A stretch of DNA of 64,000 bases from positions 2,761,097 to 2,825,096 of the forward strand of contig CBDIID010000003.1 in assembly GCA_965279515.1 (NCBI GenBank), read 5' to 3'. This DNA is from Turneriella sp. (GTDB lineage Bacteria; Spirochaetota; Leptospiria; Turneriellales; Turneriellaceae). The notes beneath the pieces are model-generated. The model ran no database searches. It was not told the origin of the DNA and saw only the letters and a program-made list of their open reading frames with translations. This document shows, in pieces, positions 20,129 through 49,226 of the stretch. Positions within the stretch are counted from its first letter, which is position 1. Each line of letters starts with the position of its first letter. Made by a program: the position numbers and the translations under genes.

Positions 20129-21034
20129 ATGACAAAAGCAGAATTTCTCGCGAGCGAAACCGGCAAACAGTATACAGCGCAGATGCGCCTGACGGGATTA
20201 AGGCCTGTCACCATCAATAACTATGCCCGGCGCGTCAGCGCGGCAGCAAGGTTTTTGCGGAAGGAGCCCTCCAGCCTCAGTTCAAAAGACGCAGAAGAGT
20301 TCATCCAGAAGGCGGCGCTCGAGGGTAACTCGAACATTAACAGCATTATTACATGCGTGGCGCTGAAATTTTATGTGACGCGCATACTGAAGAAACCCTG
20401 GCACAGCTTTGCGTTACCGCGCGTCCATAAACACCGTAAGCGGCGCGCACGGCCGTTGACGCGCGACGAAATTCTCGCCATCATCGATCGCACGCAGGGT
20501 CGTCGGTACCGGCTGCTCTTCGCCCTGATCTATGGCAGCGGCCTGCGCGTGGGTGAAGCGTGCCGGCTGCGTCTCAGAGATCTGGATTTTCACAATCTGA
20601 AAATTTATATCCGGGATGGAAAGGGCGGCCGTCACCGTGAAACGGTACTTTCTTCCGCGCTGGCAAAGGAACTCATGCTTTATATTTCCGAAAGGCGCCC
20701 GATCCAATGGCTTTTCCCTTCGAACCGCCAGACTTACGCGGCGGAAACCCTCTTTCCTGTGGTAATCAGAACAAAGCCTATCTCTGTGCGTTCGGCCCAG
20801 CGTGAGTTTGAAATTGCCTCCAACCAACTGAATCTTTCAGGGCTGGTCACCATCCACTCGCTGAGGCACTCTTTCGCCACCCATCTCGTGGAATATAATA
20901 TGCCGCTGTTTTCTGTGCAGCGTTTGCTGGGCCACCAACACCTCAACACAACGCTGGGTTATTTGTCGTCGATGGGTCGGCCCGTGGTTGAAGATTTTAG
21001 CCCGCTAGACCGCTTGCGCATCGCGCACCTGTAA
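20129..21034 (+). CDS. Solitary tyrosine recombinase (N-terminal SAM-like domain; IntI/IS91-associated-like)
   Basis: YGSGLRVGE, GKGG, HSLRHSFATH, LLGH...TTLGY and C-terminal SPLD; the full R-K-H-R-H-Y catalytic set is present. Confidence 0.9.
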   Translation: MTKAEFLASETGKQYTAQMRLTGLRPVTINNYARRVSAAARFLRKEPSSLSSKDAEEFIQKAALEGNSNINSIITCVALKFYVTRILKKPWHSFALPRVHKHRKRRARPLTRDEILAIIDRTQGRRYRLLFALIYGSGLRVGEACRLRLRDLDFHNLKIYIRDGKGGRHRETVLSSALAKELMLYISERRPIQWLFPSNRQTYAAETLFPVVIRTKPISVRSAQREFEIASNQLNLSGLVTIHSLRHSFATHLVEYNMPLFSVQRLLGHQHLNTTLGYLSSMGRPVVEDFSPLDRLRIAHL

Positions 21035-37340: not shown

Positions 37341-38491
37341 GATTCCACCGCGAATTTTAATCCGGCATGCGCTTCGAGGCGTGCGACGAGTGGCCCCGCC
37401 ATGACACCGCCCGGCGTAAAACAGCCACCGTCAGATTCGACATCGAGCAGCGTCAGCGCCGCTTCAGATATCATCTTCGAAGTCGAGCCATAGCCGGGGT
37501 CACGGTCGCCCTTGACCGAAGCTTTAATTATACCGCCGTCGGGATATTCACCGGTGAAGAGCACATCGTAGAAACCGTTTTCTCTTTCTTCTTTAGATGG
37601 GCCATCGCCGGGCTTGAGACCCTTTCCGGAAAACGGATTGGCTTTCGCTGCGGCGTCGACGAGAGCGCGTGCGGCCTCGCCCAATGTTGTGAGCATCATT
37701 TCATCGTAAACGAAATCGGTGCCGTACTGGTGCTTCAGTAGAAAATTGGTACGGTGCACGTTCTTCGTATTGATCGGCGCCATCACAAAGGGAGCCGCCC
37801 AGACGCCCATGGTCTTATCGTATTCAGGAACCAGGCCCGACGGCTGCGACGGGCCGGTAAAGCCCGGCGTCAGCGCAAAGGGATTATTCAGCAGGCCCAG
37901 AATACCCGGGTCTTTGATCGAAGCTTTCAGCGTGGCCTTCATACTCGCCATGGTACCGCCCGAAGCGCCGCCCTGCATCTTGCGCACGCGGCCCTTGACG
38001 CGCGGCGCAGGTTTGCCGAATTTCTGGATGGCTTCTTGTTGCAAAAACCAGACGCCGAGATCGAACGGAATTGAATCGAAACCAGCGGAGAGCACAATAC
38101 GCGCGCCGCTTTTCTTCGCCGCCTCTTCATGCGCATCGATCATCTGCCGCGCCCAGGCGGGCTCGCCGTTGAGGTCGAGGTAGTCGGTGCCCGATGCGGC
38201 GCAGGCGGCGACGAGCGGAGTACCATAGAGCTGGTAGGGACCGACGGTGGTTAAGACCGAGCGGGTGCGGTTACACATCGCGGCCAGCGATGATGGGTTC
38301 TCCGCGTCAGCGGCAATGAGGGGGATGTCCTTCGATGCACCTACCGCATCGCGCACTTCGGCGAGTTTTGCCGTGTTGCGGCCCGCCATTGCCCAACCCT
38401 GGATGCCGCGCTGTACAAGGTACTCGGCGACAAGCCGACCTGTAAAACCGCTTGCGCCATAGACGATGATGTCGAATTCTCTTTGTGCCAT
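37337..38491 (-). CDS. Saccharopine dehydrogenase-like/trans-acting enoyl reductase family oxidoreductase
   Basis: YGASGFTGRL, TTVGPYQLYG, YLDLNGE, GFDSIPFDLG, DPGYGSTSKM. Confidence 0.9.
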   Translation of the reverse strand: MAQREFDIIVYGASGFTGRLVAEYLVQRGIQGWAMAGRNTAKLAEVRDAVGASKDIPLIAADAENPSSLAAMCNRTRSVLTTVGPYQLYGTPLVAACAASGTDYLDLNGEPAWARQMIDAHEEAAKKSGARIVLSAGFDSIPFDLGVWFLQQEAIQKFGKPAPRVKGRVRKMQGGASGGTMASMKATLKASIKDPGILGLLNNPFALTPGFTGPSQPSGLVPEYDKTMGVWAAPFVMAPINTKNVHRTNFLLKHQYGTDFVYDEMMLTTLGEAARALVDAAAKANPFSGKGLKPGDGPSKEERENGFYDVLFTGEYPDGGIIKASVKGDRDPGYGSTSKMISEAALTLLDVESDGGCFTPGGVMAGPLVARLEAHAGLKFAVES

Positions 38492-38573
38492 GGGTTATTT
38501 TAAGGAGGCGATTACTCGTGTCGCCACAAATTCCCTTAGGATGTAGCGTTCAGATTTTTAACGGAGAAAATTC

Positions 38574-39470
38574 ATGCGGCTAAAAATTCCGATTGTTTTT
38601 ATTAAGCCATTTTTTATCCTTTTGCCCTTGCTGACCGTCTGGGCAGGCTTCGAATACTTTCAGATCCGGAAGAAACTGAATTATTCTACACAACACCCAG
38701 ATTCACGAAAGACCCCGGCGCTGGCCCTACCTGATGTGCAAGGCAAACTGCACCGCCTGGATAAAATCAATGCCCCAGGAATCGTCGTATTTTGGGCATC
38801 CTGGTGCGGACCCTGCATTGAAGAACTGCGCAAACTCGAAAAACAGGATTTGGGAAGCTGGAGTTATCTTGCTATAAACTCTGCGGATAATCGGGAAGAC
38901 GCCGAAAAATTTCTTAAAAAAGAGAAATTTCAAAAACCGCTGATCTTATTCGACGACAAGGGGGAAATTTCCGGAATCAAGGGTTATCCCAGTGTCTATG
39001 CTTCCTTTGGCAATGGTGTTTGGGCGGGACCAATGCTCTGGGGTGATTTCGATGAGGTCATCACGGAGGTGAAGAACACCTTGAGTCAAACAGACTATAA
39101 GCCGCTGCAGGAATCCCAAAAAAGAAGGAGCGAGTATTTCGAAAATGCTGCATGGCACTTCTACTACGCTGTGACGAACTTAGTAGGCGTCGCATATATG
39201 CTCATTTTACTTTTTCTAATGCGTAATGTAGTGCGCCGGACCGTCTTTCTTCGCTGGGTACTTCTCGCCTATCTCACGATATGTATTTTGGAGTCCCTGA
39301 ACGTTTTTAGTATAAAGGAAGTCTTTGGGAAAGGAAGCCATTCGCCATGGCGGATAGTCATCTATCTTTATTACAGTCCATTATTCTGGGGAGCATGGGT
39401 TAGTTTGGGGATCCTGATCTACTTGCGTCAGTTCGTCCCGGCTACTAAACCTGAAAATTCCTTGTCGTAG
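38574..39470 (+). CDS. Membrane TlpA-like thioredoxin (CxxC) with extra C-terminal TM helices
   Basis: FWASWCGPCIEE, GYPSVY; N-terminal anchor and three C-terminal hydrophobic helices. Confidence 0.8.
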   Translation: MRLKIPIVFIKPFFILLPLLTVWAGFEYFQIRKKLNYSTQHPDSRKTPALALPDVQGKLHRLDKINAPGIVVFWASWCGPCIEELRKLEKQDLGSWSYLAINSADNREDAEKFLKKEKFQKPLILFDDKGEISGIKGYPSVYASFGNGVWAGPMLWGDFDEVITEVKNTLSQTDYKPLQESQKRRSEYFENAAWHFYYAVTNLVGVAYMLILLFLMRNVVRRTVFLRWVLLAYLTICILESLNVFSIKEVFGKGSHSPWRIVIYLYYSPLFWGAWVSLGILIYLRQFVPATKPENSLS

Positions 39471-39494
39471 GGTAGCAAGCCACTAACGCGAGCC

Positions 39495-40745
39495 ATGTCT
39501 TCTATCCCCAAATTCACCATCGACGGCAAGCGCACTGCCGACGAACTCGAAAAGCTCGCGCGCTTTTCTGACCACAAGTACCCCGCTGTCACGCGCATCA
39601 TCTTCACCGAGAACGATGTTAAAGCGCGCAATTATTTTAAGTCTCTGGCGAATGAAGCGGGACTCTCTGTGCGCGAAGACACGATCGGTAATATCTTTGT
39701 GCGCCTCGAGGGTTCGCAAAAAGACGGCGCGATCGGTACCGGTTCACACTGCGACGCGGTACCTTTTGCAGGACGCTTCGATGGTACGGTGGGAGTTTTC
39801 GGCGGCCTCGAAGCGTTGCGCGCGCTGAAGAATGCCGGCTTTAAGCCGAAGCGCCCGCTCGAAGTTGTCTTCTTTACCTCTGAAGAACCCACGCGCTTCG
39901 GCATCGGCTGCATCGGCAGCAGAATCATGTCAAACACCATTACGATGGAAAAAGTGGCTGCTCTGCGCGATAAAGACGGCCTCAGCTTCGACCAGGCGAG
40001 AGAATCGGCAGGGTATAAAGGCGCAGTACAAGACTCTATCCTACCTAAAGGTTATTACGATTATTTCTGCGAGCTGCACATCGAGCAGGGCCCTGTGCTC
40101 GAGCGCGAAAAAAAGCAGATCGGTGCTGTGACGGGCATCGCCGCGCCCGCTTCGTTCCGTATTCACTTCACGGGCGAAGGTGGCCACGCAGGGGGAGTTC
40201 TCATGCCGGCGCGCAAAGACGCCCTGGTGCCGTGCGCTATCCTCATTCAGGAGACTGAGCGTCTCGCAAAGTCATCGGCGAGCCCTGACACTGTCGGCAC
40301 CGTAGGCGTGGTGAAAGTGCATCCCGGTGCGATCAACAGTATTCCAGCGAAAGCAACGGTAGAGTTCGACATTCGCGACATACGCCTCGATACGCGCGAC
40401 CATGTTGTGACCGAGGTCAAAAAACTCGCGCAGAAGCTCGCCGACGAGCGCGGCTTGAAAGTGGAAATCGAAGACATCAATTCCGATCCGCCGGCGGTTT
40501 CTGACGAGGCCATCCTCAAAATCACGGAAAAGGCCGCGGCAAATTATGGTTATTCGCATATGCGTCTGCCGAGCCGCGCCTACCACGATTCGCTGTTCAT
40601 CGCGCGCATCGCGCCGATGGGTATGATCTTTGTGCCCTCAAAGAGCGGTTACAGCCACCGCAGCGACGAGTATACCTCGCCTGAGGAAATCCAACGCGGC
40701 GTCGAGATGCTGGCGCAGACTATGGCCGAACTTTCACTGCTGTAA
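39495..40745 (+). CDS. M20 Zn/Mn amidohydrolase, ureidoglycolate amidohydrolase-like
   Basis: GSHCDAVP, FTSEEPTRFGIGCIGSR, ELHIEQGP, GGHAG, SRAYHDSLF, GYSH; these motifs match what I recall of plant-type UAH. Confidence 0.75.
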   Translation: MSSIPKFTIDGKRTADELEKLARFSDHKYPAVTRIIFTENDVKARNYFKSLANEAGLSVREDTIGNIFVRLEGSQKDGAIGTGSHCDAVPFAGRFDGTVGVFGGLEALRALKNAGFKPKRPLEVVFFTSEEPTRFGIGCIGSRIMSNTITMEKVAALRDKDGLSFDQARESAGYKGAVQDSILPKGYYDYFCELHIEQGPVLEREKKQIGAVTGIAAPASFRIHFTGEGGHAGGVLMPARKDALVPCAILIQETERLAKSSASPDTVGTVGVVKVHPGAINSIPAKATVEFDIRDIRLDTRDHVVTEVKKLAQKLADERGLKVEIEDINSDPPAVSDEAILKITEKAAANYGYSHMRLPSRAYHDSLFIARIAPMGMIFVPSKSGYSHRSDEYTSPEEIQRGVEMLAQTMAELSLL

Positions 40746-40746
40746 C

Positions 40747-41154
40747 TTGGCTTCGTACCAAAGTTTCATTTTCTCAGCAGAGACGGCGCAGGTGTTCTGG
40801 CCCAAAGCACGGGCCGCTGTGGAAACGTATTGCCGCAAAGCCGGCCGTCCCGTTTCACTGATGGCCGATACGAAACGAATGCGCGTCGAGTATGGGCGTG
40901 AAGAATATTATTTTTATCTTAGCCTCTTTGAGGGTGAGGCCGCGCTGGCTGAGTCGGAAGATATTGCCAGAAGCCGTCTATCCCACCCTTGGGCCAAAAC
41001 CGTTGCAAACTGCGCTTACCGGATTGAATTTTCCGGGGATGACGACCCCGACATGGATTATTTCAACGAGTACTTTGCCTTAATGGAAGAGCTCGTGCAA
41101 GGTGCCGGGGCTATTGTTTTTGATTACCCAAGCGGCAAGTTCTTCGGCACTTAG
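40747..41154 (+). CDS. Hypothetical protein
   Basis: TTG start 1 nt after the upstream stop; acidic C-terminal motif DDDPDMDYFNEY. Confidence 0.55.
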   Translation: MASYQSFIFSAETAQVFWPKARAAVETYCRKAGRPVSLMADTKRMRVEYGREEYYFYLSLFEGEAALAESEDIARSRLSHPWAKTVANCAYRIEFSGDDDPDMDYFNEYFALMEELVQGAGAIVFDYPSGKFFGT

Positions 41155-41197
41155 GTTTTTTTGACACCTTGCATCGGCATCGGGCGTACATGAGGCT

Positions 41198-41782
41198 ATG
41201 CAAAAATTATCATTCACCCTGATTTTCGCCATTTTCATCGCCGGATGCGGCAAGGGCAAGGGTTCTGCGGCTGGCGCGCTCGTGGTACCCGCATTACCGG
41301 CAGATTATACTGCCTTAGACTTAACCCAGACCGGCCTCAAGGCTACCGTGAAGGCACCTGCAGGCGCCACAGCTGAAAAATCTACCCTCGATGACAACGA
41401 GGGTAAGCGGCCCTATTACATCGTGCGCGCATTTTCGATTCCGAGCGATGCCGCGAACCCGGACAGAACCGCCCAGGCGAAATTCGATATCTATTCGACG
41501 AAGCGGCCCTTTGGCCAGCACCGCGAAGAAGTCAAATTCAGGCCGACCATCGGCTGGAAAAGCTGGCTCAAAGACGAAGGCGAACTGATCGTCTTTGCGG
41601 CGCGGCCCGGCAATTCGATCGGCCAGCCGATACGCGAAAAAGACAGTGAAGTCTATCACTTCATGCTGCTGCGCCAGGGCGCGGATGGCCAGCACTACAT
41701 CGTGGCCTCTAGCTCGTCTATGGATTATACGAAGGATGAAATGCTGAGACTGCTGGCTATCGCCCAGTCGCTGAAGATCTGA
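41198..41782 (+). CDS. Hypothetical lipoprotein
   Basis: MQKLSFTLIFAIFIAGC lipobox. Confidence 0.7.
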   Translation: MQKLSFTLIFAIFIAGCGKGKGSAAGALVVPALPADYTALDLTQTGLKATVKAPAGATAEKSTLDDNEGKRPYYIVRAFSIPSDAANPDRTAQAKFDIYSTKRPFGQHREEVKFRPTIGWKSWLKDEGELIVFAARPGNSIGQPIREKDSEVYHFMLLRQGADGQHYIVASSSSMDYTKDEMLRLLAIAQSLKI

Positions 41783-41784
41783 CC

Positions 41785-42138
41785 TCAGCGCGCCGCAAGG
41801 GCGCGCAGTGCTTCCTCTTGAGACGCATAGATGGAGACATAACGCGTGATCTGCACAAGATCGAGCATTTTTCTGACATGCAGGTTCGCGCCAAAAATGC
41901 ACACGGAGCCGGAAACGGGGCTAAGCAGTTTCAGCAGCGAGAATAAAACGCTGACCGCGGGGGAGTCGATCGCTTCCATTTTAGTCGCATCGACCAGAAA
42001 GGTGCGGCCGCCACCCTGAACCCGGGCCGTGAGTTCTTTGCGCAGCGCCTCGGCGCTTTCCATATTCATGTCGCCGGAGGTACTGAGGATCAGGGTCGTC
42101 GGATCAACGGCGTGGAATTCTAATGTAAACGCCTGCAT
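41785..42138 (-). CDS. STAS domain anti-sigma-factor antagonist
   Basis: SGDMN, LVDATKMEAIDSPAVSVL (conserved DS), VRKMLDL. Confidence 0.85.
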   Translation of the reverse strand: MQAFTLEFHAVDPTTLILSTSGDMNMESAEALRKELTARVQGGGRTFLVDATKMEAIDSPAVSVLFSLLKLLSPVSGSVCIFGANLHVRKMLDLVQITRYVSIYASQEEALRALAAR

Positions 42139-42169
42139 CGTTCATAATACGAACGGGCAGGCTTGGGGG

Positions 42170-42574
42170 TTACAGGCCGGCGATGCCGGCTTTGGCGACC
42201 TGGGTATCTTGCGTCGAAAGCGCGCCAGAGACGCCGATCGCGCCAACGATCTTATCGCCTTTGACAATGATCTCTCCGCCTTCGACGGGAATCACATTCG
42301 GCATGCCAAGAATCTTGAGACCCGCGCCGCCCTTTTCGACAGTCTCTTCAAAAGCCTTCGTGGCACGCTTGAATTTTATCGAGGTCAGTGCCTTGGCCTG
42401 GCAGATTTCAATCGAACCCAGCTGCGTGTTATCCATCTTTTCGAGCAGCACGAGATTCGCGCCCGAATCGACGATGGCAATCGCCATGTTCCAGCCGTTT
42501 TTCCCGGCCTCTGCCTGCGCAGCCGCGACAATTTTTTTCGCATCGGCAAGTGCGATGGGTTCACCGTAAGTCAT
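42170..42574 (-). CDS. GlcG/HbpS family heme-binding protein
   Basis: AIAIVDSGANLV, AKALTS, GGEII..GDKIVGAIGVSG...DTQVA. Confidence 0.85.
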   Translation of the reverse strand: MTYGEPIALADAKKIVAAAQAEAGKNGWNMAIAIVDSGANLVLLEKMDNTQLGSIEICQAKALTSIKFKRATKAFEETVEKGGAGLKILGMPNVIPVEGGEIIVKGDKIVGAIGVSGALSTQDTQVAKAGIAGL

Positions 42575-42620
42575 GGGTAAATAAAGATTGCCGCGCACAG
42601 GCTGGCAATCGCAATAAGCA

Positions 42621-43340
42621 ATGTTATCACCTTTCTGGGGCGAATTTCTGGGCACGATGGTGCTCATCATCTTAGGCAGCGGCGTTGTCGCGGGCGTGCT
42701 GCTTGAAAAATCGAAGGCGCAAAACGCCGGGTGGATTGTCATCACGGCGGGCTGGGCCTTTGCCGTCACGCTGGGGATTTTCACCGCGAAGACTTTCGGC
42801 AGTCCCGATGCGCACCTAAACCCGGCCGTAACGCTGGCCTTCGCGATCAAATCGGGCTCGTATGAAAACGTGCCCGTCTTCTTCGCCGCCCAGTTCGCGG
42901 GCGCTTTTGCGGGAGCTGTCATCACCTGGCTGCACTATTTACCGCACTGGGGCGAAACAAAAAACCCCGCACTAAAACTCGCGGTCTTCTCAACCGACCC
43001 GGCCATTCGCCATCCGGTGCACAACATGGTGAGCGAGATCATCGGCACATTGGTTCTCATCATCGGCGTCTACGTCATCTTCTCACGCGGCTCCGGCGGC
43101 ATCAGCGCAGGCATGGGCCCGTTTCTCGTCGGCATACTCGTCTGGGCAATCGGCCTCTCGATGGGCGGCACGACCGGCTACGCGATCAACCCCGCCCGCG
43201 ACCTCGGCCCACGCCTCGCGCATGCACTGCTGCCGATTGCTGGCAAGGGCTCATCGGACTGGCGCTATGCTTGGGTGCCAGTGGTCGCACCGCTGATTGG
43301 AGGGGGGATTGCGGGGGTGGTGTTGCGGTTGGTTTCGTAG
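42621..43340 (+). CDS. glpF: MIP channel, aquaglyceroporin (GlpF-like)
   Basis: Two NPA motifs (HLNPAVT, TGYAINPARDLGPR), EFLGT, six TM helices. Confidence 0.88.
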   Translation: MLSPFWGEFLGTMVLIILGSGVVAGVLLEKSKAQNAGWIVITAGWAFAVTLGIFTAKTFGSPDAHLNPAVTLAFAIKSGSYENVPVFFAAQFAGAFAGAVITWLHYLPHWGETKNPALKLAVFSTDPAIRHPVHNMVSEIIGTLVLIIGVYVIFSRGSGGISAGMGPFLVGILVWAIGLSMGGTTGYAINPARDLGPRLAHALLPIAGKGSSDWRYAWVPVVAPLIGGGIAGVVLRLVS

Positions 43341-43374
43341 AATAGGTGGAGTGTGACATGGGCAAAGAGTAATT

Positions 43375-44163
43375 ATGTACGCAAAATATTTTATCGCATT
43401 ATTGATTATCTTCTTAGGAAATTGCCGAGACCCCAAAGGCCAGATTGTTGAAGATTACTTAGATTCTACTCTGACGAGAGAAAGTACGATCAGAATGCAA
43501 GAGGTTTTTGTCGAAAAATTGCCACCGCAAATGCCGCGCTCAGTCAAGTTAAAACTCGGTGCCTTTGCACGCCGGATATGGGACTTTGAAACATACGCTG
43601 ATACATTAAAGCAAACCTCGATACCGCCGGAAGTCATAGCCGGCATGAAGTCGACTATAGATTTCAGTAAGACAGAAGCTGGCAGGTCGTACAAAAAATC
43701 CCTTAAGAATTATTTTGACAATGAGCGGCAGCTTTTAGGCCAGAAGAGAATCTCCGATTTCCCCGCCGCTCGAATCGACTTTTTTACGCAGCGCTTTTTT
43801 GCCAATAACGAGCCTGAAAACGGGGAACGGGTAAACCGCGACTTCAACTATCGTATGATGAAAATCTTTTGGATATTGAGCCATCCAAATAAACCCATTG
43901 ACGAGGCAGAAATCAAGGCAAAGTCTCAGATTATCATAAACGCTGAGCGTAACAAAATGCAGAAATCAATTATTCAGGGCAAAGTCCCAGATTCTATGCT
44001 TCTTCGCAGCTTGGTACAGACTATGCTCTTAACCGAGCAAGAATTTGAGGCGTACAAATCCTACCTTAATGCAACAGAGGCCATTTCTCTGAAAAAGTTC
44101 ATTTTTGACTTTGACCATACTCAGTCGCAAATCCGCATGGACAAATACATACAATCACTATAA
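43375..44163 (+). CDS. Cassette 1: hypothetical lipoprotein
   Basis: MYAKYFIALLIIFLGNC lipobox; helical. Confidence 0.7.
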   Translation: MYAKYFIALLIIFLGNCRDPKGQIVEDYLDSTLTRESTIRMQEVFVEKLPPQMPRSVKLKLGAFARRIWDFETYADTLKQTSIPPEVIAGMKSTIDFSKTEAGRSYKKSLKNYFDNERQLLGQKRISDFPAARIDFFTQRFFANNEPENGERVNRDFNYRMMKIFWILSHPNKPIDEAEIKAKSQIIINAERNKMQKSIIQGKVPDSMLLRSLVQTMLLTEQEFEAYKSYLNATEAISLKKFIFDFDHTQSQIRMDKYIQSL

Positions 44164-44175
44164 GTTGCCCACGTC

Positions 44176-44359
44176 ACACAACAAATTTTACGCGCTGCGC
44201 CGCTGCGGTGCAGTAGCTCCCCGCGTGCTCCCTAAGGGGAGATTCGCTTCGCGCGTCGCCGCGAGCCGCTACGACCACATTTTTTGACGCAAATCGGCTT
44301 TACAAAGTGAATAATGACACAAGCATCAAAAAACGTCATCGTAAAATCCAACGTTAGCT
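44176..44359 (+). repeat. attC-like element 1 (about 184 bp)
   Basis: ACACAAC-aaa-TTTTACG ... CGTAAAA-tccaac-GTTAGCT; internal stem TTTTTGACGC/GCATCAAAAA. Confidence 0.7.
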
Positions 44360-44372
44360 GCCATGGTGCATT

Positions 44373-45293
44373 ATGTCAGACCACTTAAATAAACTAATTA
44401 ACTCAGTTCACTTTCAATCGATCCTTAAAGAGCAGAGTGTTTTTAACGTAGTTAAACAGCATTTACCAGACACTCAAATGGGGACTTTTTATGTAGACCC
44501 TGATACGAGTAAGTACAGAGAAATTGATGTATTGGCTTTAAAGGAGAGCACAATAAATCAAAAATCTGAAGAAATTAGAGTAAGAACTATTATACCAATC
44601 GAGTGCAAGACGTTGAAAAATTTTAGTGTCTTTTTGTATAATGAGCAGCCTAAAGAAAAATCCAGGCCAAATACGGTTTGGCCTCTTGAAATTCTTCAAA
44701 CAACAATTTTTCAGAAGATTCACCGTGAATCACTGAGTCTAAAAGTCCAAAAACGGTTTGAGCTTGAGCATTCAAATACACGCCCGAAACTAACAGATCA
44801 GATAGATTTGGCCGCCAGTTTCGCTGAACCTGTCTTTCCTACTTATGCGAGTTTTAGGGAGATGAACCCAGCAAATGTGCGACGCAAGGATGATGATGGG
44901 AGCGTCGTTTGGGAAGCTAGCCAAAGTCTTCGGGCCTGCCAGATGTACTTCGTAAATGAGGTTATCAAGACCGCCGTTGAGGATTCGATTGAACAAATGG
45001 CAGGCTTTATTGATGAAGTTGACAAAGCTAGAGATGCAACTTATACACGCATACCGCTAATAAGACTTGATGCCATTAAAGCATTGCATAATAGATTTTA
45101 CTCAATTCATCCCATATTGGTGGTAGACGCTCAGCTTTTTACAATTGATGAGAATGAAAACCCTAAGGAGATTTCCGCAGGCAATTTGGCATTTTACGGC
45201 GTTGGCGGCTTCGCAAATTTTCAAATGACAGTCATGCGGTATTCGACCTTTCAAGAGTCAATCGCTGCTTTGATAAAAGGCATCTTGATCTGA
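44373..45293 (+). CDS. Cassette 2: PD-(D/E)xK restriction-endonuclease-fold protein
   Basis: YVDPDTSKYREIDVLA...IPIECK motif; low GC. Confidence 0.6.
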   Translation: MSDHLNKLINSVHFQSILKEQSVFNVVKQHLPDTQMGTFYVDPDTSKYREIDVLALKESTINQKSEEIRVRTIIPIECKTLKNFSVFLYNEQPKEKSRPNTVWPLEILQTTIFQKIHRESLSLKVQKRFELEHSNTRPKLTDQIDLAASFAEPVFPTYASFREMNPANVRRKDDDGSVVWEASQSLRACQMYFVNEVIKTAVEDSIEQMAGFIDEVDKARDATYTRIPLIRLDAIKALHNRFYSIHPILVVDAQLFTIDENENPKEISAGNLAFYGVGGFANFQMTVMRYSTFQESIAALIKGILI

Positions 45294-45305
45294 ATGCCCC
45301 ACGGC

Positions 45306-45602
45306 AGCTAACAAATTTTACGCGCTGCGCGCTGCGGTGCCGTAGTTCCTCTGAAAACAGAGACCCGAGGACAGGTCGCGTGTGCTCCCTCAGGGGAGAT
45401 TCGCTTCGCTCATCGCGGGTCTTCGCAGCAAAGATCGCGGACGACGCGCACACCGGGAGGTGTGTTTTCGCGCGGCGCTGCGTGACCTTTTAGGTCTTCG
45501 TCTTCGGTGCCGCTAGACCACATCTTTTGACGCGAATCGGCTTTACAAATTGATTAAATGGCACAGGCGTCAAAAAACGTCGGCGTTAGATCCAAGTTGT
45601 GT
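45306..45602 (+). repeat. attC-like element 2 (about 297 bp)
   Basis: AGCTAAC-aaattttacgcg ... gcgttaga-tccaa-GTTGTGT; shares blocks with elements 1 and 3. Confidence 0.7.
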
Positions 45603-45612
45603 TACCTTTACT

Positions 45613-46401
45613 ATGAAACCATTCTCAAAGCGCTATTTTCTACTTATAATACTTGGCCTAAATTCGATTACGTGTAATAATCATAAAATTGCAACGAAAG
45701 ATATACTTATTGTCGAAATCACTGATGCCGATCTCGGCCTGAAAATAACTGCTGAGCCGGAGTATCGGAGAATGATCCCCTTGTTCCGCACATCTCTGAC
45801 GAAGTTTCTAACGGATTTAGGACCGTTAGCTCGATATGTTCTAATTCATATGACCCTTAGTTCGCACGAAAAAAATGACATCGATCATAACTTGCGCGAC
45901 GCCATACAGAAGCTGCCCCGTAAGACTCTAATTTATGGCAACTTACTTAAACGAAAGATGACGCATAAGTTTTTTTCCTCCGCAGTCGCCGAAATGGGTC
46001 ACGTTGAATTTGCCGAAGCAGACGAAATGACATGGTTATTCTATCCGAGTATTTGTGACCGTGATAATGTAAACTCTGACAATGAGCCCGGCGATTGCCC
46101 TGAAAACAAAATCCGCAGAGATATTGCTTTGATCGCCGCTGAGGGGTATGCAGGTAAAAAAATTACGACAAAACTTGCTGATTCTATTGCCTACGAAAAA
46201 TGGAGATTAAAAGGGTTATCGCGAATTACCTATACGAAAGCAACGCAATCGCCCGAGCTCTTGAAGGACAAGCTCATCATAATAATCAATCAACCGACAC
46301 CTGACAGCGATATGCACGATCTAATGGGGGATTCAAAAATATCCGGTTCAGAAATTCTTGGGAATCGAGTTTTGTTTTACAATGAATTAGCTGCCCCGTA
46401 G
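45613..46401 (+). CDS. Cassette 3: hypothetical lipoprotein
   Basis: ATG 17 nt after GTT; MKPFSKRYFLLIILGLNSITC lipobox-like. Confidence 0.65.
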   Translation: MKPFSKRYFLLIILGLNSITCNNHKIATKDILIVEITDADLGLKITAEPEYRRMIPLFRTSLTKFLTDLGPLARYVLIHMTLSSHEKNDIDHNLRDAIQKLPRKTLIYGNLLKRKMTHKFFSSAVAEMGHVEFAEADEMTWLFYPSICDRDNVNSDNEPGDCPENKIRRDIALIAAEGYAGKKITTKLADSIAYEKWRLKGLSRITYTKATQSPELLKDKLIIIINQPTPDSDMHDLMGDSKISGSEILGNRVLFYNELAAP

Positions 46402-46409
46402 CAAACGGC

Positions 46410-46722
46410 GCACATCGAGGTTTGCGGGGCTACGCTCGCTGGGGCGCCATAGCTTGAAACCGCAAGGGCGATGGCGCGGGCTTCCTAAAGGGAGATTCGC
46501 TTCGCTCATCGCGGGGTCTCCGCGGCAAAGATCGCGGATGACGCGCACACCGGGAGGTGTGTTTTTGCGCGGCGCTCGTGACCTTTTAGGTCACTGAAGA
46601 CAGAGGCGAAGACGCCACCGTCTTCGGTGCTACGAGGGCACATTTTGTGTCGCGAATCGGCTTTACAGATTGATTAATTGGGGCAGGCGTCAACAAACGT
46701 CAGCGGAAAATCCACGTTGAGC
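46410..46722 (+). repeat. attC-like element 3 (about 313 bp)
   Basis: GCACATC (degenerate R'') ... gcggaaaa-tccac-GTTGAGC; about 67-bp block nearly identical to element 2. Confidence 0.65.
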
Positions 46723-46740
46723 TCTATCGCCAGGAGACGA

Positions 46741-47265
46741 ATGAAAAAGAAACATTACTCCTATTCATTATTGATTCTTGTCATTTTCTTTGGAGTATCC
46801 TGCCAGCCGCGACTAAAGCTGTTTATCATTCAGAATATGACCGAAAAACCTTTAGCTATTGAACTATTTATTCATCCCTTTGAGGACATGCCAGCCAAAC
46901 CGCCTGAAGATTTCCCCTTCGAAGTAACTTTCTTTAAGTCTGGCTATTTTGGAGAGCCGAGCATTGAGGAGAATGGTACGCGAATACCCTTAAAATCTTC
47001 TGCGATTAAGTTAGATACGAAAAGGCATTCGATTATTTTTTCCCTAAAGCCCAGGGCGGGATTAGAGATTTTTAAAATGACGTTTCACCAGTTTAAGGCT
47101 TTGGATGATAAAACTATTTCAAAGTTTCCTTTCAAATTACTTGCAATACAAACTCCAAGCAAGCAACTAGAAATTGCCATAACATCGAAAGGTTTAACTG
47201 AAAACTTCCAGAGACCGTTTTTTTCAATCTGGGATCATGAGCGAAATGAACTAATTGTCCAATAG
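46741..47265 (+). CDS. Cassette 4: hypothetical lipoprotein
   Basis: AGGAG RBS; MKKKHYSYSLLILVIFFGVSC lipobox. Confidence 0.7.
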   Translation: MKKKHYSYSLLILVIFFGVSCQPRLKLFIIQNMTEKPLAIELFIHPFEDMPAKPPEDFPFEVTFFKSGYFGEPSIEENGTRIPLKSSAIKLDTKRHSIIFSLKPRAGLEIFKMTFHQFKALDDKTISKFPFKLLAIQTPSKQLEIAITSKGLTENFQRPFFSIWDHERNELIVQ

Positions 47266-47350
47266 GCAACGGCTCACAGCAAGAATTACCTGCGGTGCGG
47301 TAGCTGCCCTACAGACATAGACCCGAAGACGGGTCGCGCTTTGCGCGTCG
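47265..47350 (+). repeat. Truncated/degenerate attC-like element 4 (5' part only)
   Basis: ggcaacggctcacag...ctgcggtgcggtagc...agacccgaagacgggtcgcg resembles the 5' part of element 2; the 3' conserved block is absent. Confidence 0.5.
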
Positions 47351-47557
47351 CGGCCCTGGCAGCAGCAAGCGGTATACTTCTTTTGTGCACAACCCTCGGC
47401 GGATATCCGAAAGCGAGTTACAGAGAGGCGCCAGGAGTATATTAACTGCCGCAAGATCCCGCTACAGGCTAAAAAGTCGAACAAGGCGTCATTCAACGGT
47501 AAATAAAATTCACGCCGCCGGCCCTCCAACAGCAAAAATATTTCGTCTAAGTAGAGT

Positions 47558-47949
47558 ATGAGCATCTATCGAAGATACATGCTGGATGAATCCTGGGGCG
47601 ATGAGCCCGAAATCAAGGCGCAGAAAAGTCTCGTCGCCGCACTCCGAAAAACACTGCTCACCCCTGCCGACGTTAAGAGCGCCCTCAAGAAGGGCATAAA
47701 TCCCATTGATTCATCCATAGAGAAATGGTCTCGCATTCAAGCGGTTTTGGCCGAAGCGAAGCGAATTGAAACATTGGCTGCTTTAGAAACCTTCATCGGC
47801 GCCAAGACCTGCGCGCTCTGTATCAGATTGTACAAAATGCCCGGCATGCACCCCAGCTCTATGCCGAAGATGAGGAGATATTTGAGCAAATAAAACAGCT
47901 GGCTCTTCAGATGGTGAATTTACTGAAATCAATTCCTCAGAATAGCTGA
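47558..47949 (+). pseudogene. Probably frameshifted small Cys-motif protein
   Basis: KTCALCI in frame 1, DCTKCP in frame 2 and LYAEDEEIFEQIKQLALQMVNLLKSIPQNS* in frame 3, all within about 130 bp. Confidence 0.4.
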
Positions 47950-48027
47950 GGGGTTATCTAAATAAAACGCCTTCACACTTAAACAGAAGATCAAAGCTTG
48001 CTCCGAAACCTTCTTTGGTTAACTAAG

Positions 48028-49062
48028 CTACGGTCGTCGCACGGGACGGAAACCGATGCTGGAGAACGCCTGATACGGGGAAATCGCGTTGATGCGGCTC
48101 GAGGTGCGTACAATGCCGGAACCGGGATCGTTCCAGCTACCGCTACGCCTGATACGAAGCGGGCCGGTTGCTGGGCCTATGCTATCCGCATCCGTGTAAG
48201 GTGAGGCGGTTGTATACGAGCCATTCCAGTCCCAAACCCATTCATAAACGTTGCCACTCATATGATAGAGGCCCAAAGCATTGGGTGCTTTGGTGTCTAC
48301 CGGGTGTGTTGTTGTGGTATTGCCTGTAGTGCCATTAACGATGTTGCCGAACCAAGCTACGAAATCTGTTGCGGCAAAGTCAGAAACGTCGGCTGTTGCC
48401 CCGCTCGCATAGTTGCCCGGAGTGAATGCGGTGCCGTTAATATAACGTGCCGCATATTCCCACTCCACTTCGGTGGGCAACCGATAACCATTCGCCGACC
48501 AGTTGACGAAAGGAAAATCTATGCTGCCACTCCCCGGTGTGCCCAGAATCGAGAAGGTAGCCGACGAGGTTTTCTGCACGACCGAAAAACCAGCGTCACT
48601 GTAATACACAGGGGTCAGTCCATCTTTTTGCGATGCCGCGTTGCACCAGAGGATGCTATCCCGCCAACTAACAGCCGTCACCGGGTGCTGGTCGGTGCGC
48701 GCTCCGTTGTCACCCGGAATGCCTGGGTTGGCGAAAGTGTACCCGTTATTCGTGGCCCAAGCCTTCACCGTTACCCAGTCGCTGTATTGCACCTCATATT
48801 TCGCGATGGCGAACGCGGTGATCGAGGGAACCGTGTGCGTCAGTTCAATACCAGTATCGTCCATAACGAAACCGGTAGTATTCGCTGGCACGCGTACCAT
48901 CAGCAGGCTACAAGAGGCCATACTTATGGTGCAACTGCTTGAAATGTCGGTCGAGTCCCAGAATTTACCCCAACTCGTGCAGGAGTGGCTCATCCCTGTT
49001 GCTATGCAAAGAAAAAACACGCCGATATAAGATATTTTTCCGGATAGCATTTCCGTAAACAT
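48028..49062 (-). CDS. Lipoprotein with formylglycine-generating-enzyme (SUMF1/FGE-sulfatase) domain
   Basis: FAIAKYEV, HPVTAVSWRDSILWCN, YRLPTEVEWEYAAR, PNALGLYHMSGNVYEWVWD, IGFRPVR; start uncertain. Confidence 0.85.
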   Translation of the reverse strand: MFTEMLSGKISYIGVFFLCIATGMSHSCTSWGKFWDSTDISSSCTISMASCSLLMVRVPANTTGFVMDDTGIELTHTVPSITAFAIAKYEVQYSDWVTVKAWATNNGYTFANPGIPGDNGARTDQHPVTAVSWRDSILWCNAASQKDGLTPVYYSDAGFSVVQKTSSATFSILGTPGSGSIDFPFVNWSANGYRLPTEVEWEYAARYINGTAFTPGNYASGATADVSDFAATDFVAWFGNIVNGTTGNTTTTHPVDTKAPNALGLYHMSGNVYEWVWDWNGSYTTASPYTDADSIGPATGPLRIRRSGSWNDPGSGIVRTSSRINAISPYQAFSSIGFRPVRRP

Positions 49063-49226
49063 ATCAGAATTTTGCCCTTTGTCGACCGGAATGATCATTC
49101 AAGACCAATTTTTTTGCTTTATTCAGGGCGAGTCTCTGACTTCAGGGGCGCGGCATTAAAAATTTGTTTCATTTACGCCATGTACTTTTTATTAACTTTA
49201 TTCGGGAAAATTGTTAAGAATCAAAA

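Follow-up and report, generated by a model that had tools for sequence, protein, structure and literature searches.

In canonical integrons, an unpaired central spacer and two or three extrahelical bases on the R''-L'' arm of the attC site (a G in L'' and a T 6-8 nt further on) set the choice of strand (PMC2727003), and this 55-140 nt hairpin and the I2 helix of the integron integrase IntI have both been treated as innovations enabling single-strand cassette recombination (PMC7790495, PMC2727003). Clusters of attC sites lacking an integron integrase are called CALINs by IntegronFinder (PMC4889954), and among the spirochaetes Treponema has been reported as the only clade with integrons (PMC3607928). 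Here we analysed a 64,000-nt stretch of DNA from Turneriella sp. (C3:2761097-2825096 of the 4.9-Mb genome G000), hereafter the window, in which a small island of genes is punctuated by long palindromic repeats. As judged from comparative sequence analysis, these repeats are likely to be attC-like recombination sites of an integron-like cassette system in Turneriella and its relatives (Leptospirae), with a recombinase devoid of I2 as partner. In the literature consulted, no description of such a system was found, and nothing links Turneriella to integrons or cassettes, nor attC-like sites to other recombinases.

Members of the repeat family were collected with BLAST, nhmmer profiles and a sequence model, and about 138 sites were found in G000, a number far beyond chance. 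About 120 of them form two co-oriented minus-strand arrays (C3 90.8-169.9 kb and 3734-3805 kb) holding 119 cassettes, and the remaining ones lie in a few small clusters, among them the array of the window. A typical unit measures 216 nt (median 216.5 nt, range 170-226) and is built as R''(nnnnAAC)-AA-L''(10 nt), a three-way junction, and L'(10 nt)-CC(A/G)C-R'(GTTnnnn). The AAC and GTT cores are invariant in about 125 sites genome-wide, and also in sites 1 and 2 of the window. In the same set, AA separates R'' from L'' and CCAC or CCAAC separates L' from R', so that the short left spacer which had been called non-canonical in a model's commentary on the letters alone (the sequence-only reading) is real. 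The RYYY/RRRY purine-pyrimidine code of the R boxes is not kept, as in AGACAAC/GTTGTCT. At least six subfamilies with different L boxes were distinguished, the changes being always complementary; their L''/L' types include ACCTG/CAGGT, AAAATACCCG/CGGGTATTTT, GATTTACGAG/CTCGTAAATC, AATTTACCTG/CAGGTAAATT and GAATTTCGCG/CGCGAAATTC. A few solitary or partial copies were seen elsewhere (C3 1067951, 1703332, 2383651 and 3496635). An insertion sequence (IS) of the IS481-like type, with a 426-aa transposase (C3:89395-90841), cuts off the last site of array 1, and IS481-like ends (GGTACTATCACGACATAGGTAACAC) follow several R' sites inside both arrays.

The ends of the cassettes were compared across adjacent sites. 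The R' of one site matched the reverse complement of the R'' of the next at 7 of 7 variable positions in 88 of 118 adjacent pairs (75%), versus 5% when both boxes were taken from the same site and 5.7% for random pairs; in the window, R' of site 1 GTTAGCTGCC is the exact reverse complement of R'' of site 2 GGCAGCTAAC. Five cassette families are present in at least two copies, and in each of them the own site type is constant, whereas the upstream site types and the neighbours vary. A 194-nt cassette has ten copies in G000 (C3 3735724, 3736121, 3746559, 3752529, 3756400, 3773105, 3781851, 155727, 115567 and 113437), in which identity starts exactly at GTT in nine of the ten, after five L' types and four spacer variants, and ends at CCAC|GTT in all ten. 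Hence the spacer is part of the upstream site, with exchange inside GTT, as in integrons. These alignments show an exchange within the invariant GTT, the exact phosphate being beyond their resolution, and cassettes which are discrete units with complementary ends, travelling with their own downstream site. The near-identical sites and the repeated cassettes in varied contexts indicate recent activity. The cassettes have an average GC content of 44%, versus 53% for the genome, and 66 of 88 ORFs (open reading frames) run along the array direction. The 194-nt cassette has no ORF (GTTAGCCACCATTACCTCCTTCGCGCC...) and always carries the L'' AAAATACCCG site type; the 5' end of its bottom strand, AAGGAGGTAATGGTGGCTAAC, resembles a ribosome-binding site and start codon reading into the upstream site. 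Many cassettes start with GTTGTCTGAAATAATTGCGCC (for example C3:170640-170680) and continue with a hairpin in which the stems covary and the loop ATCC(N)TG is conserved (CGTCGCCATCCTTGGCGACG, CGCCGACCTCGTGTCGGCG); their 3' ends are GGCGCAATTACTTCAGACAAC, which means that the R-box pairing can reach about 21 bp.

The fold of the site was analysed by RNAalifold on 27 diverse members. The predicted elements are the L stem, a short hairpin H1, a long interrupted hairpin H2 and a hairpin H3 with a 13-bp stem and a large loop; the R and L boxes are set apart by a 2 x 4 nt internal loop, closing the three-way junction of the hairpins, and the R-box pairing extends to 12 bp, with the longer value noted above in some cases. 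Compensatory double changes were found in 37 of the 47 consensus pairs, and 94.5% of the cells are paired, versus 73% in shuffled alignments (0 of 500 reach 94.5%) and 30-43% with slid partners. In the 10-bp L stem, the corresponding values are 94.8% of paired cells and double changes in 7 of the 10 pairs. The sequence-only reading had proposed a new attC class and named a lack of R/L pairing or covariation as fatal to it; both are present and, with the arrayed cassette copies, they support the proposal. Changes at paired positions lead nearly always from one Watson-Crick pair to another, about 8 in 1244 cells being one-sided, a pattern more in keeping with palindromic DNA than with a typical RNA. 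The bottom strand, whose folding had been recommended, is the more stable fold in 110 of 122 sites (p = 1.6e-20), and in 115 of 118 R boxes one position is an A.C on top and hence a G.T on the bottom strand. A site reconstituted with a matched R box reaches -65.4 kcal/mol on the bottom strand (z -6.6). An extrahelical G or T was not consistently found on the R''-L'' arm, subfamily A alone being drawable by eye with a bulged G; the extra unpaired bases sit on the R'-L' arm (CCAC versus AA).

Such a structure could also be that of an RNA, and the repeats could then be mainly structured RNAs or transcription signals (terminators, insulators, processing sites or promoters), the cassette layout being secondary. 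The very strong conservation of the secondary structure, the location of the sites always between ORFs, the motif GGCTTT(A/C)C often present in the H3 loop and a TTGACG-N17-TTGAAT readable by eye in some subfamilies are compatible with this explanation. However, no Rfam match was obtained in the window between 40 and 52 kb (E <= 1) or in 23.6 kb of the big arrays (E <= 0.1), a consensus promoter scan detected none inside the repeats, and terminator-like matches were few, on both strands and unconvincing. The content of the H3 loop varies between subfamilies, the rarity of one-sided changes is unlike typical RNA families, and the complementary cassette ends and the exchange point in GTT are left unexplained. 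The promoter or structured-RNA role raised by the sequence-only reading is not supported by these searches, and we consider a mainly RNA function unlikely; the sites may have a secondary RNA role besides recombination.

The attC-like interpretation was then applied to the copies of the window, where an island at 43.3-47.9 kb consists of five plus-strand ORFs kept apart by four GC-rich repeats (GC 53-58%, versus 37-50% for the ORFs, four of them at 37-42% and the last at 50%). Its features are the following:

42621-43340, plus strand: MIP-channel gene, upstream border of the island
43341..43362, plus strand: array start, read as a pseudo-attI junction, directly after the MIP stop codon; sequence TAGAATAGGTggaGTGTGACAT
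43375..44163, plus strand: ORF of cassette 1, 262 aa, lipoprotein-like N-terminus, GC 42%
44171..44364 extended (R'' to R' 44176-44359), plus strand: site 1, 184 nt
44373..45293, plus strand: ORF of cassette 2, 306 aa, GC 40%
45301..45608 extended (R'' to R' 45306-45603), plus strand: site 2, 298 nt
45613..46401, plus strand: ORF of cassette 3, lipoprotein-like MKPFSKRYFLLIILGLNSITC, GC 42%
46400..46728, plus strand: site 3, about 313-325 nt, left arm degenerate, R' at 46717-46723
46741..47265, plus strand: ORF of cassette 4, lipoprotein-like MKKKHYSYSLLILVIFFGVSC, GC 37.5%
47266..47557, plus strand: site 4, decayed remnant with GAATTACCTG-type L'' and CGGTGCGGTAGCTGCC
47558..47893, plus strand: terminal ORF of the island, 111 aa, not followed by a site
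48028-49098, minus strand: FGE-sulfatase-domain gene, downstream border of the island

At the array start, the GTT of R' is mutated to GGA, and GTGTGAC is the complement of the R'' of site 1. The left arm of site 1 is composed of an extended R'' ACGTCACACAAC (7-nt R'' at 44176-44182), AA and L'' ATTTTACGCG, and its right arm of L' TCGTAAAAT, the spacer CCAAC and R' GTTAGCT (44353-44359), extended to GTTAGCTGCCAT. Its H3 is TTTTTTGACGC...ATCAAAAAA, the long hairpin H2 is deleted with CTCCCTAAGGGGAG in its place, the L pair has two mismatches, the left-arm model gives 54 bits and the fold is weak (z -1.2). Site 2 starts with R'' ACGGCAGCTAAC (45301-45312), AA and the same L'' ATTTTACGCG, and the 5' end of cassette 2, TTAGCTGCC, is the exact complement of this R''. 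The interior of site 2 contains the H2 core CACACCGGGAGGTGTG, then GACCTTTTAGGTC and H3, with the additional hairpins TCTGAAAACAGA, GACCCGAGGACAGGTC and CTCCCTCAGGGGAG; on the right, a degenerate L' (GCGTTAGAT) and the spacer CCAA precede R' GTTGTGT (45597-45603). The left-arm model gives 37 bits and the fold has a z of -2.1, the closing stem not being formed. Site 3 has lost its R''/L'' left arm, replaced by a local hairpin CCCCG..GCAAAC/GTTTGCGGGG, and is not matched by the left-arm model; its interior is made of the modules of site 2 plus an extra GAAGACGGTGGCGTCTTC hairpin, its right arm is intact (CAGCGGAAAAT-CCAC-GTTGAGC), and its z of -4.75 is due to internal hairpins only. In site 4, absent from the list of the sequence-only reading, the right arm is unrecognisable and without GTT. 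The left-arm model thus matches only sites 1 and 2, in which the L boxes have two or three mismatches; site 3 is without L''. A Pfam search gave no match for cassette 1 and only a sub-threshold CHASE2 match for cassette 3, and cassette 2 was not found in 19 other genomes of the family and is strain-specific.

The repeat search in the window returned three-copy families (D2, D3, D5) at 74-90% identity, and the hairpin motifs which had been named from the letters were all recovered with their coordinates: CTCCCTAAGGGGAG at 44229-44242 with variants in sites 2 and 3, CACACCGGGAGGTGTG at 45449-45464 and 46546-46561, GACCTTTTAGGTC at 45484-45496 and 46579-46591, and TTTTGACGC..GCGTCAAAA enclosing AATCGGCTTTACA in all three sites. 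A near-identical block of about 63 nt is indeed common to sites 2 and 3 (45417-45479 versus 46514-46576, 94% identity) and absent from site 1. The giant size attributed to sites 1-3 was also confirmed by measurement, and that of sites 2 and 3 results from the addition of modules onto a family already about 216 nt long. The idea of attC sites colonised by REP-like (repetitive extragenic palindromic) hairpins is apt in part, and for the window copies only: compared with the canonical 216-nt unit, sites 2 and 3 have extra hairpin modules and site 1 has lost the long H2. The window array is a small satellite array, CALIN-like, of degenerate members of the family. Since arms have been mutated or lost and hairpins gained or lost, little or no activity is probable for these copies. 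Along the 4.84-Mb contig, the cumulative GC skew is lowest at about 2.78-2.81 Mb, around the mini-array (about 38000-49000 of the window), and highest at about 0.30 Mb; a replication origin may lie at this minimum. For the two big arrays, located on the same replichore, the bottom strand of the sites serves as lagging-strand template. No RNA-seq was found for the stretch, which occurs only in DNA-type runs of the organism and in drinking-water metagenomes.

The recombinase was sought in G000 and eight relatives (nine genomes, two genera) with TIGR02249 for IntI (cut-off 265 bits) and PF00589 for tyrosine recombinases. No protein reaches the TIGR02249 cut-off in these genomes. G000 has only four tyrosine recombinases, none of which adjoins an array, and no recombinase lies within 22 kb of window sites 1-4. 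The candidate array recombinase of G000 is an intact 366-aa protein (C3:2926093-2927193), an ortholog of which (51% identity) is found divergent, at 0.7-1.6 kb from the first site, in all five relatives checked (G002, G005, G007, G011 and G013); these array-head enzymes are 367-411 aa long. The catalytic residues R225, K250, H316, R319, H342 and Y351 are invariant in 23 homologs. The 366-aa protein scores 196 bits with XerA_Arch (NF040815, cut-off 220) and 161 bits with TIGR02249, and its best fold match is VchIntIA 2a3v (E = 2e-16), XerA being next. Residues ~182-245 of IntI4, the region of the I2 insertion, have no counterpart in it, the alignment to XerA is contiguous, and the AlphaFold model (predicted local distance difference test, pLDDT, 84) has no helix in residues 272-292, where I2 would be. 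An N-terminal extension of about 100 aa corresponds to a three-helix domain in the same model. XerC- and XerD-like genes are present separately from the array recombinase, and the homologs (Turneriella, Spirochaetes and Leptospiraceae metagenome-assembled genomes, MAGs) bear only the public name "tyrosine-type recombinase/integrase". The window's own 301-aa recombinase (20129-21034, plus strand), which is intact and scores 149 bits with TIGR02249, below the cut-off, was considered as partner and is less likely: its orthologs (G003 C1:312133 and G011 C1:1305444, 16-26 kb from the MIP gene) are syntenic core genes which adjoin no array, and by this comparison it looks like a conserved core gene and not the cassette recombinase.

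Between the recombinase gene and the first cassette of the relatives sits a conserved region ending at an attI-like junction. TTGACA-N33-GTT with (T/G)AATAGA(C/A)|GTT is kept in G005, in G007 and at both big-array heads of G000, and the attI repeats are CGTTACACGT / ACGTGTAAC. With regard to a Pc promoter for the cassettes, four array heads have a conserved TTGACA 39 nt before the junction GTT, but no -10 is conserved. In the closest relative, G001, TAGAATAGGT|GTTGTGTGAAAG directly follows the MIP stop, with a different cassette. As the MIP-stop sequence resembles the attI-like junction, it is read as a pseudo-attI site, at which the window array would have been inserted, at the stop codon of the MIP-channel gene. 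In the T. parva-like genome G011, no cassette follows MIP, just another gene. A clean empty site could not be demonstrated, the FGE-sulfatase gene not being syntenic with the MIP gene in any relative; the former has up to 8 paralogs in G012 and may itself be accessory DNA. In G005 (L055 3250-3800), MazF/PemK-like toxin and AbrB/MazE-like antitoxin genes, read by eye with no family search, are located between the recombinase and the attI-like region; this pair is absent from G007.

Taken together, these data lead us to propose the following scheme. A cassette would consist of a gene and its own downstream site of about 216 nt, a long imperfect palindrome. The XerA/IntI-like recombinase, with all the catalytic residues but without the I2 insertion of IntI, would cut at GTT and would excise and insert cassettes, the site acting most probably as a folded single strand and probably as the bottom strand. 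The DNA form, the strand used and the identity of the enzyme are deduced from the anatomy of the sites and from the gene neighbourhood in the relatives. Several observations weigh against this scheme. In G000, the recombinase gene adjoins no array: 118 kb separate it from the window array, and the two big arrays are also distant, so that the enzyme would need to act in trans. The full attI motif of G005 and G007 is absent from G000, the TTGACA-N33-GTT / AATAGAC|GTT junction alone being kept. The absence of the I2 helix (PMC7790495) means that single-strand recombination is not assured, and the rarity of one-sided G.U-type changes does not separate a hairpin from a cruciform or from duplex recognition. 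The sites also depart from canonical attC (PMC2727003) in that their spacers measure 2 versus 4 nt and no clear extrahelical bases occur on the R''-L'' arm. Finally, the minimum-energy folds of window sites 1-3 never form the closing stem.

Ordinary integron arrays having lost their canonical IntI (pure CALINs), with an unrelated Xer-like neighbour, would account for the AAC...GTT cores, the hybrid sites and the cassette structure, which are integron-like; CALINs are common (PMC4889954) and the arrays of G000 are without adjacent recombinase. Against this explanation, no IntI reaches the model cut-off in the nine genomes of two genera, the same I2-less recombinase is divergent at the array head beside the attI-like junction in all five relatives, and the near-identical sites and recurrent cassettes point to recent activity. 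We hold this loss of IntI to be improbable, slightly more so than a mainly RNA function. As for REP or bacterial interspersed mosaic elements (BIME) or miniature inverted-repeat transposable elements (MITE), selfish palindromes spread by transposition or by a RAYT-like (REP-associated tyrosine transposase) enzyme, the GC-rich, modular, intergenic hairpins and the few solitary or partial copies recall them, but the sequence-only reading's fallback of REP/BIME-like elements is largely refuted by the concentration of the copies in two co-oriented cassette arrays and a few small clusters, by flanks which are cassette-specific and complementary across each cassette, by the constancy of the site type of a cassette, by the absence of target-site duplications and MITE terminal inverted repeats, and by IS481-like termini unrelated to the site ends (the intactness of the IS copies was unchecked), which makes such elements very improbable.

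The attC-like family is unevenly distributed among the relatives. At least 150 sites were counted over about 3.457-3.668 Mb (~210 kb) in the T. parva-like genome G011, 138 in G000, 51 in G002, 0-26 in the other genomes of the genus and 0-4 in genomes of other genera of the family. In Leptospira alstonii serovar Sichuan str. 79601 (NZ_ANIK01000016.1; L087 7625-7850), a complete site of about 216 nt and of the AATTTACCTG type was found (R'' ..CACATAAC, R' GTTATGC), with a truncated copy on another contig (L096 ~1210-1290); this occurrence suggests cassette transfer between Turneriella and Leptospira. In the Leptospiraceae MAG JAGRNJ010000003.1 (L070 2880-3090), a palindrome of about 190 nt, GCCTGGGCGGGAAC...GTTCCCGCCCAGGC, is just upstream of a 43%-identical recombinase homolog, with one small ORF after them; in the 3 kb of available sequence no comparable array was seen, only this palindrome, possibly a distantly related site of this type. 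An exact 21-mer of the site, often several per short contig, was also detected in MAGs labelled Flavobacteriales, Chlamydiae, Nitrospira, Lachnospiraceae and Patescibacteria (L080, L089, L101, L104 and others), whose contigs are probably mis-binned Turneriella array contigs; a single match in Ureibacillus looks like chance.

Among the described systems, the sedentary chromosomal integrons, such as the Vibrio cholerae superintegron with its V. cholerae repeats (VCR), are the closest in organisation. Both have arrays of promoterless, low-GC cassettes in one orientation, tens to more than 150 in number and mostly of unknown function; each cassette has its own 3' palindromic site with invariant AAC/GTT, paired L boxes and a branched, variable terminal structure. 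The sites are hybrid in both, the bases that follow GTT being part of the next cassette, and the array head (here that of the relatives) has an attI-like junction and a divergent tyrosine recombinase; toxin-antitoxin modules are also common to both. In contrast, the Turneriella sites are 170-226 nt long (184 to about 325 in the window) versus 55-140 bp for canonical attC, a figure taken from the sequence-only reading; their spacers are of 2 and 4 nt versus about 5-6 nt, without clear extrahelical bases on the R''-L'' arm, and their R pairing goes to 12 or about 21 bp. The recombinase falls short of the IntI model (161 versus 265 bits), is without I2 and carries the N-terminal extension of about 100 aa, and the arrays of G000 are away from its gene.

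CALINs are typically degraded remnants. Provided that the sites are attC-like, the window cluster of at least two sites with cassettes and no nearby integrase resembles a CALIN, but membership among CALINs requires a match to the covariance model of canonical attC (PMC4889954). The integrons of Treponema are likewise chromosomal cassette arrays, but they have a genuine IntI and ordinary attC sites, neither of which was found in Turneriella. By sequence, the recombinase is closest to the XerA type (NF040815; PDB 4a8e), with the same catalytic set; however, Xer acts on one dif site of about 28 bp per replicon for dimer resolution, whereas the Turneriella paralog is linked to hundreds of 216-nt sites. 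REP and BIME have in common with the sites their modular GC-rich hairpins between genes, but they are dispersed and lack cassette-specific complementary flanks. IntegronFinder has a default attC size limit of 200 nt; with this setting it would probably skip the Turneriella sites, and standard integron-finding tools are expected to miss the system.

Given the absence of the I2 domain, the length of the sites and the geometry of their spacers and extrahelical positions, the system is not a member of the integron class despite its integron-like build. We favour, only a little above an even chance, the view that a second class of integron exists in Turneriella and the Leptospirae, with an I2-less XerA/IntI-like recombinase which captures and shuffles cassettes through three-way-junction sites of about 216 nt; it would represent a pre-I2 stage of integron evolution that has survived, or else cassette capture would have been invented independently. 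This lineage displays every genomic signature of cassette capture without either defining feature, namely the I2 helix and the 55-140 nt attC with extrahelical bases. Should the recombinase prove to act on folded single strands, this chemistry would be possible without I2; should it act on duplex or cruciform DNA, there would be another way to build cassette arrays. In both cases, the origin of integrons becomes directly testable. Searches restricted to IntI and short attC may also miss large cassette reservoirs. If true, this interpretation extends integron-like gene capture to the Leptospirae, with arrays of 50 to more than 150 cassettes which, in the T. parva-like genome, would rival the largest known superintegrons.

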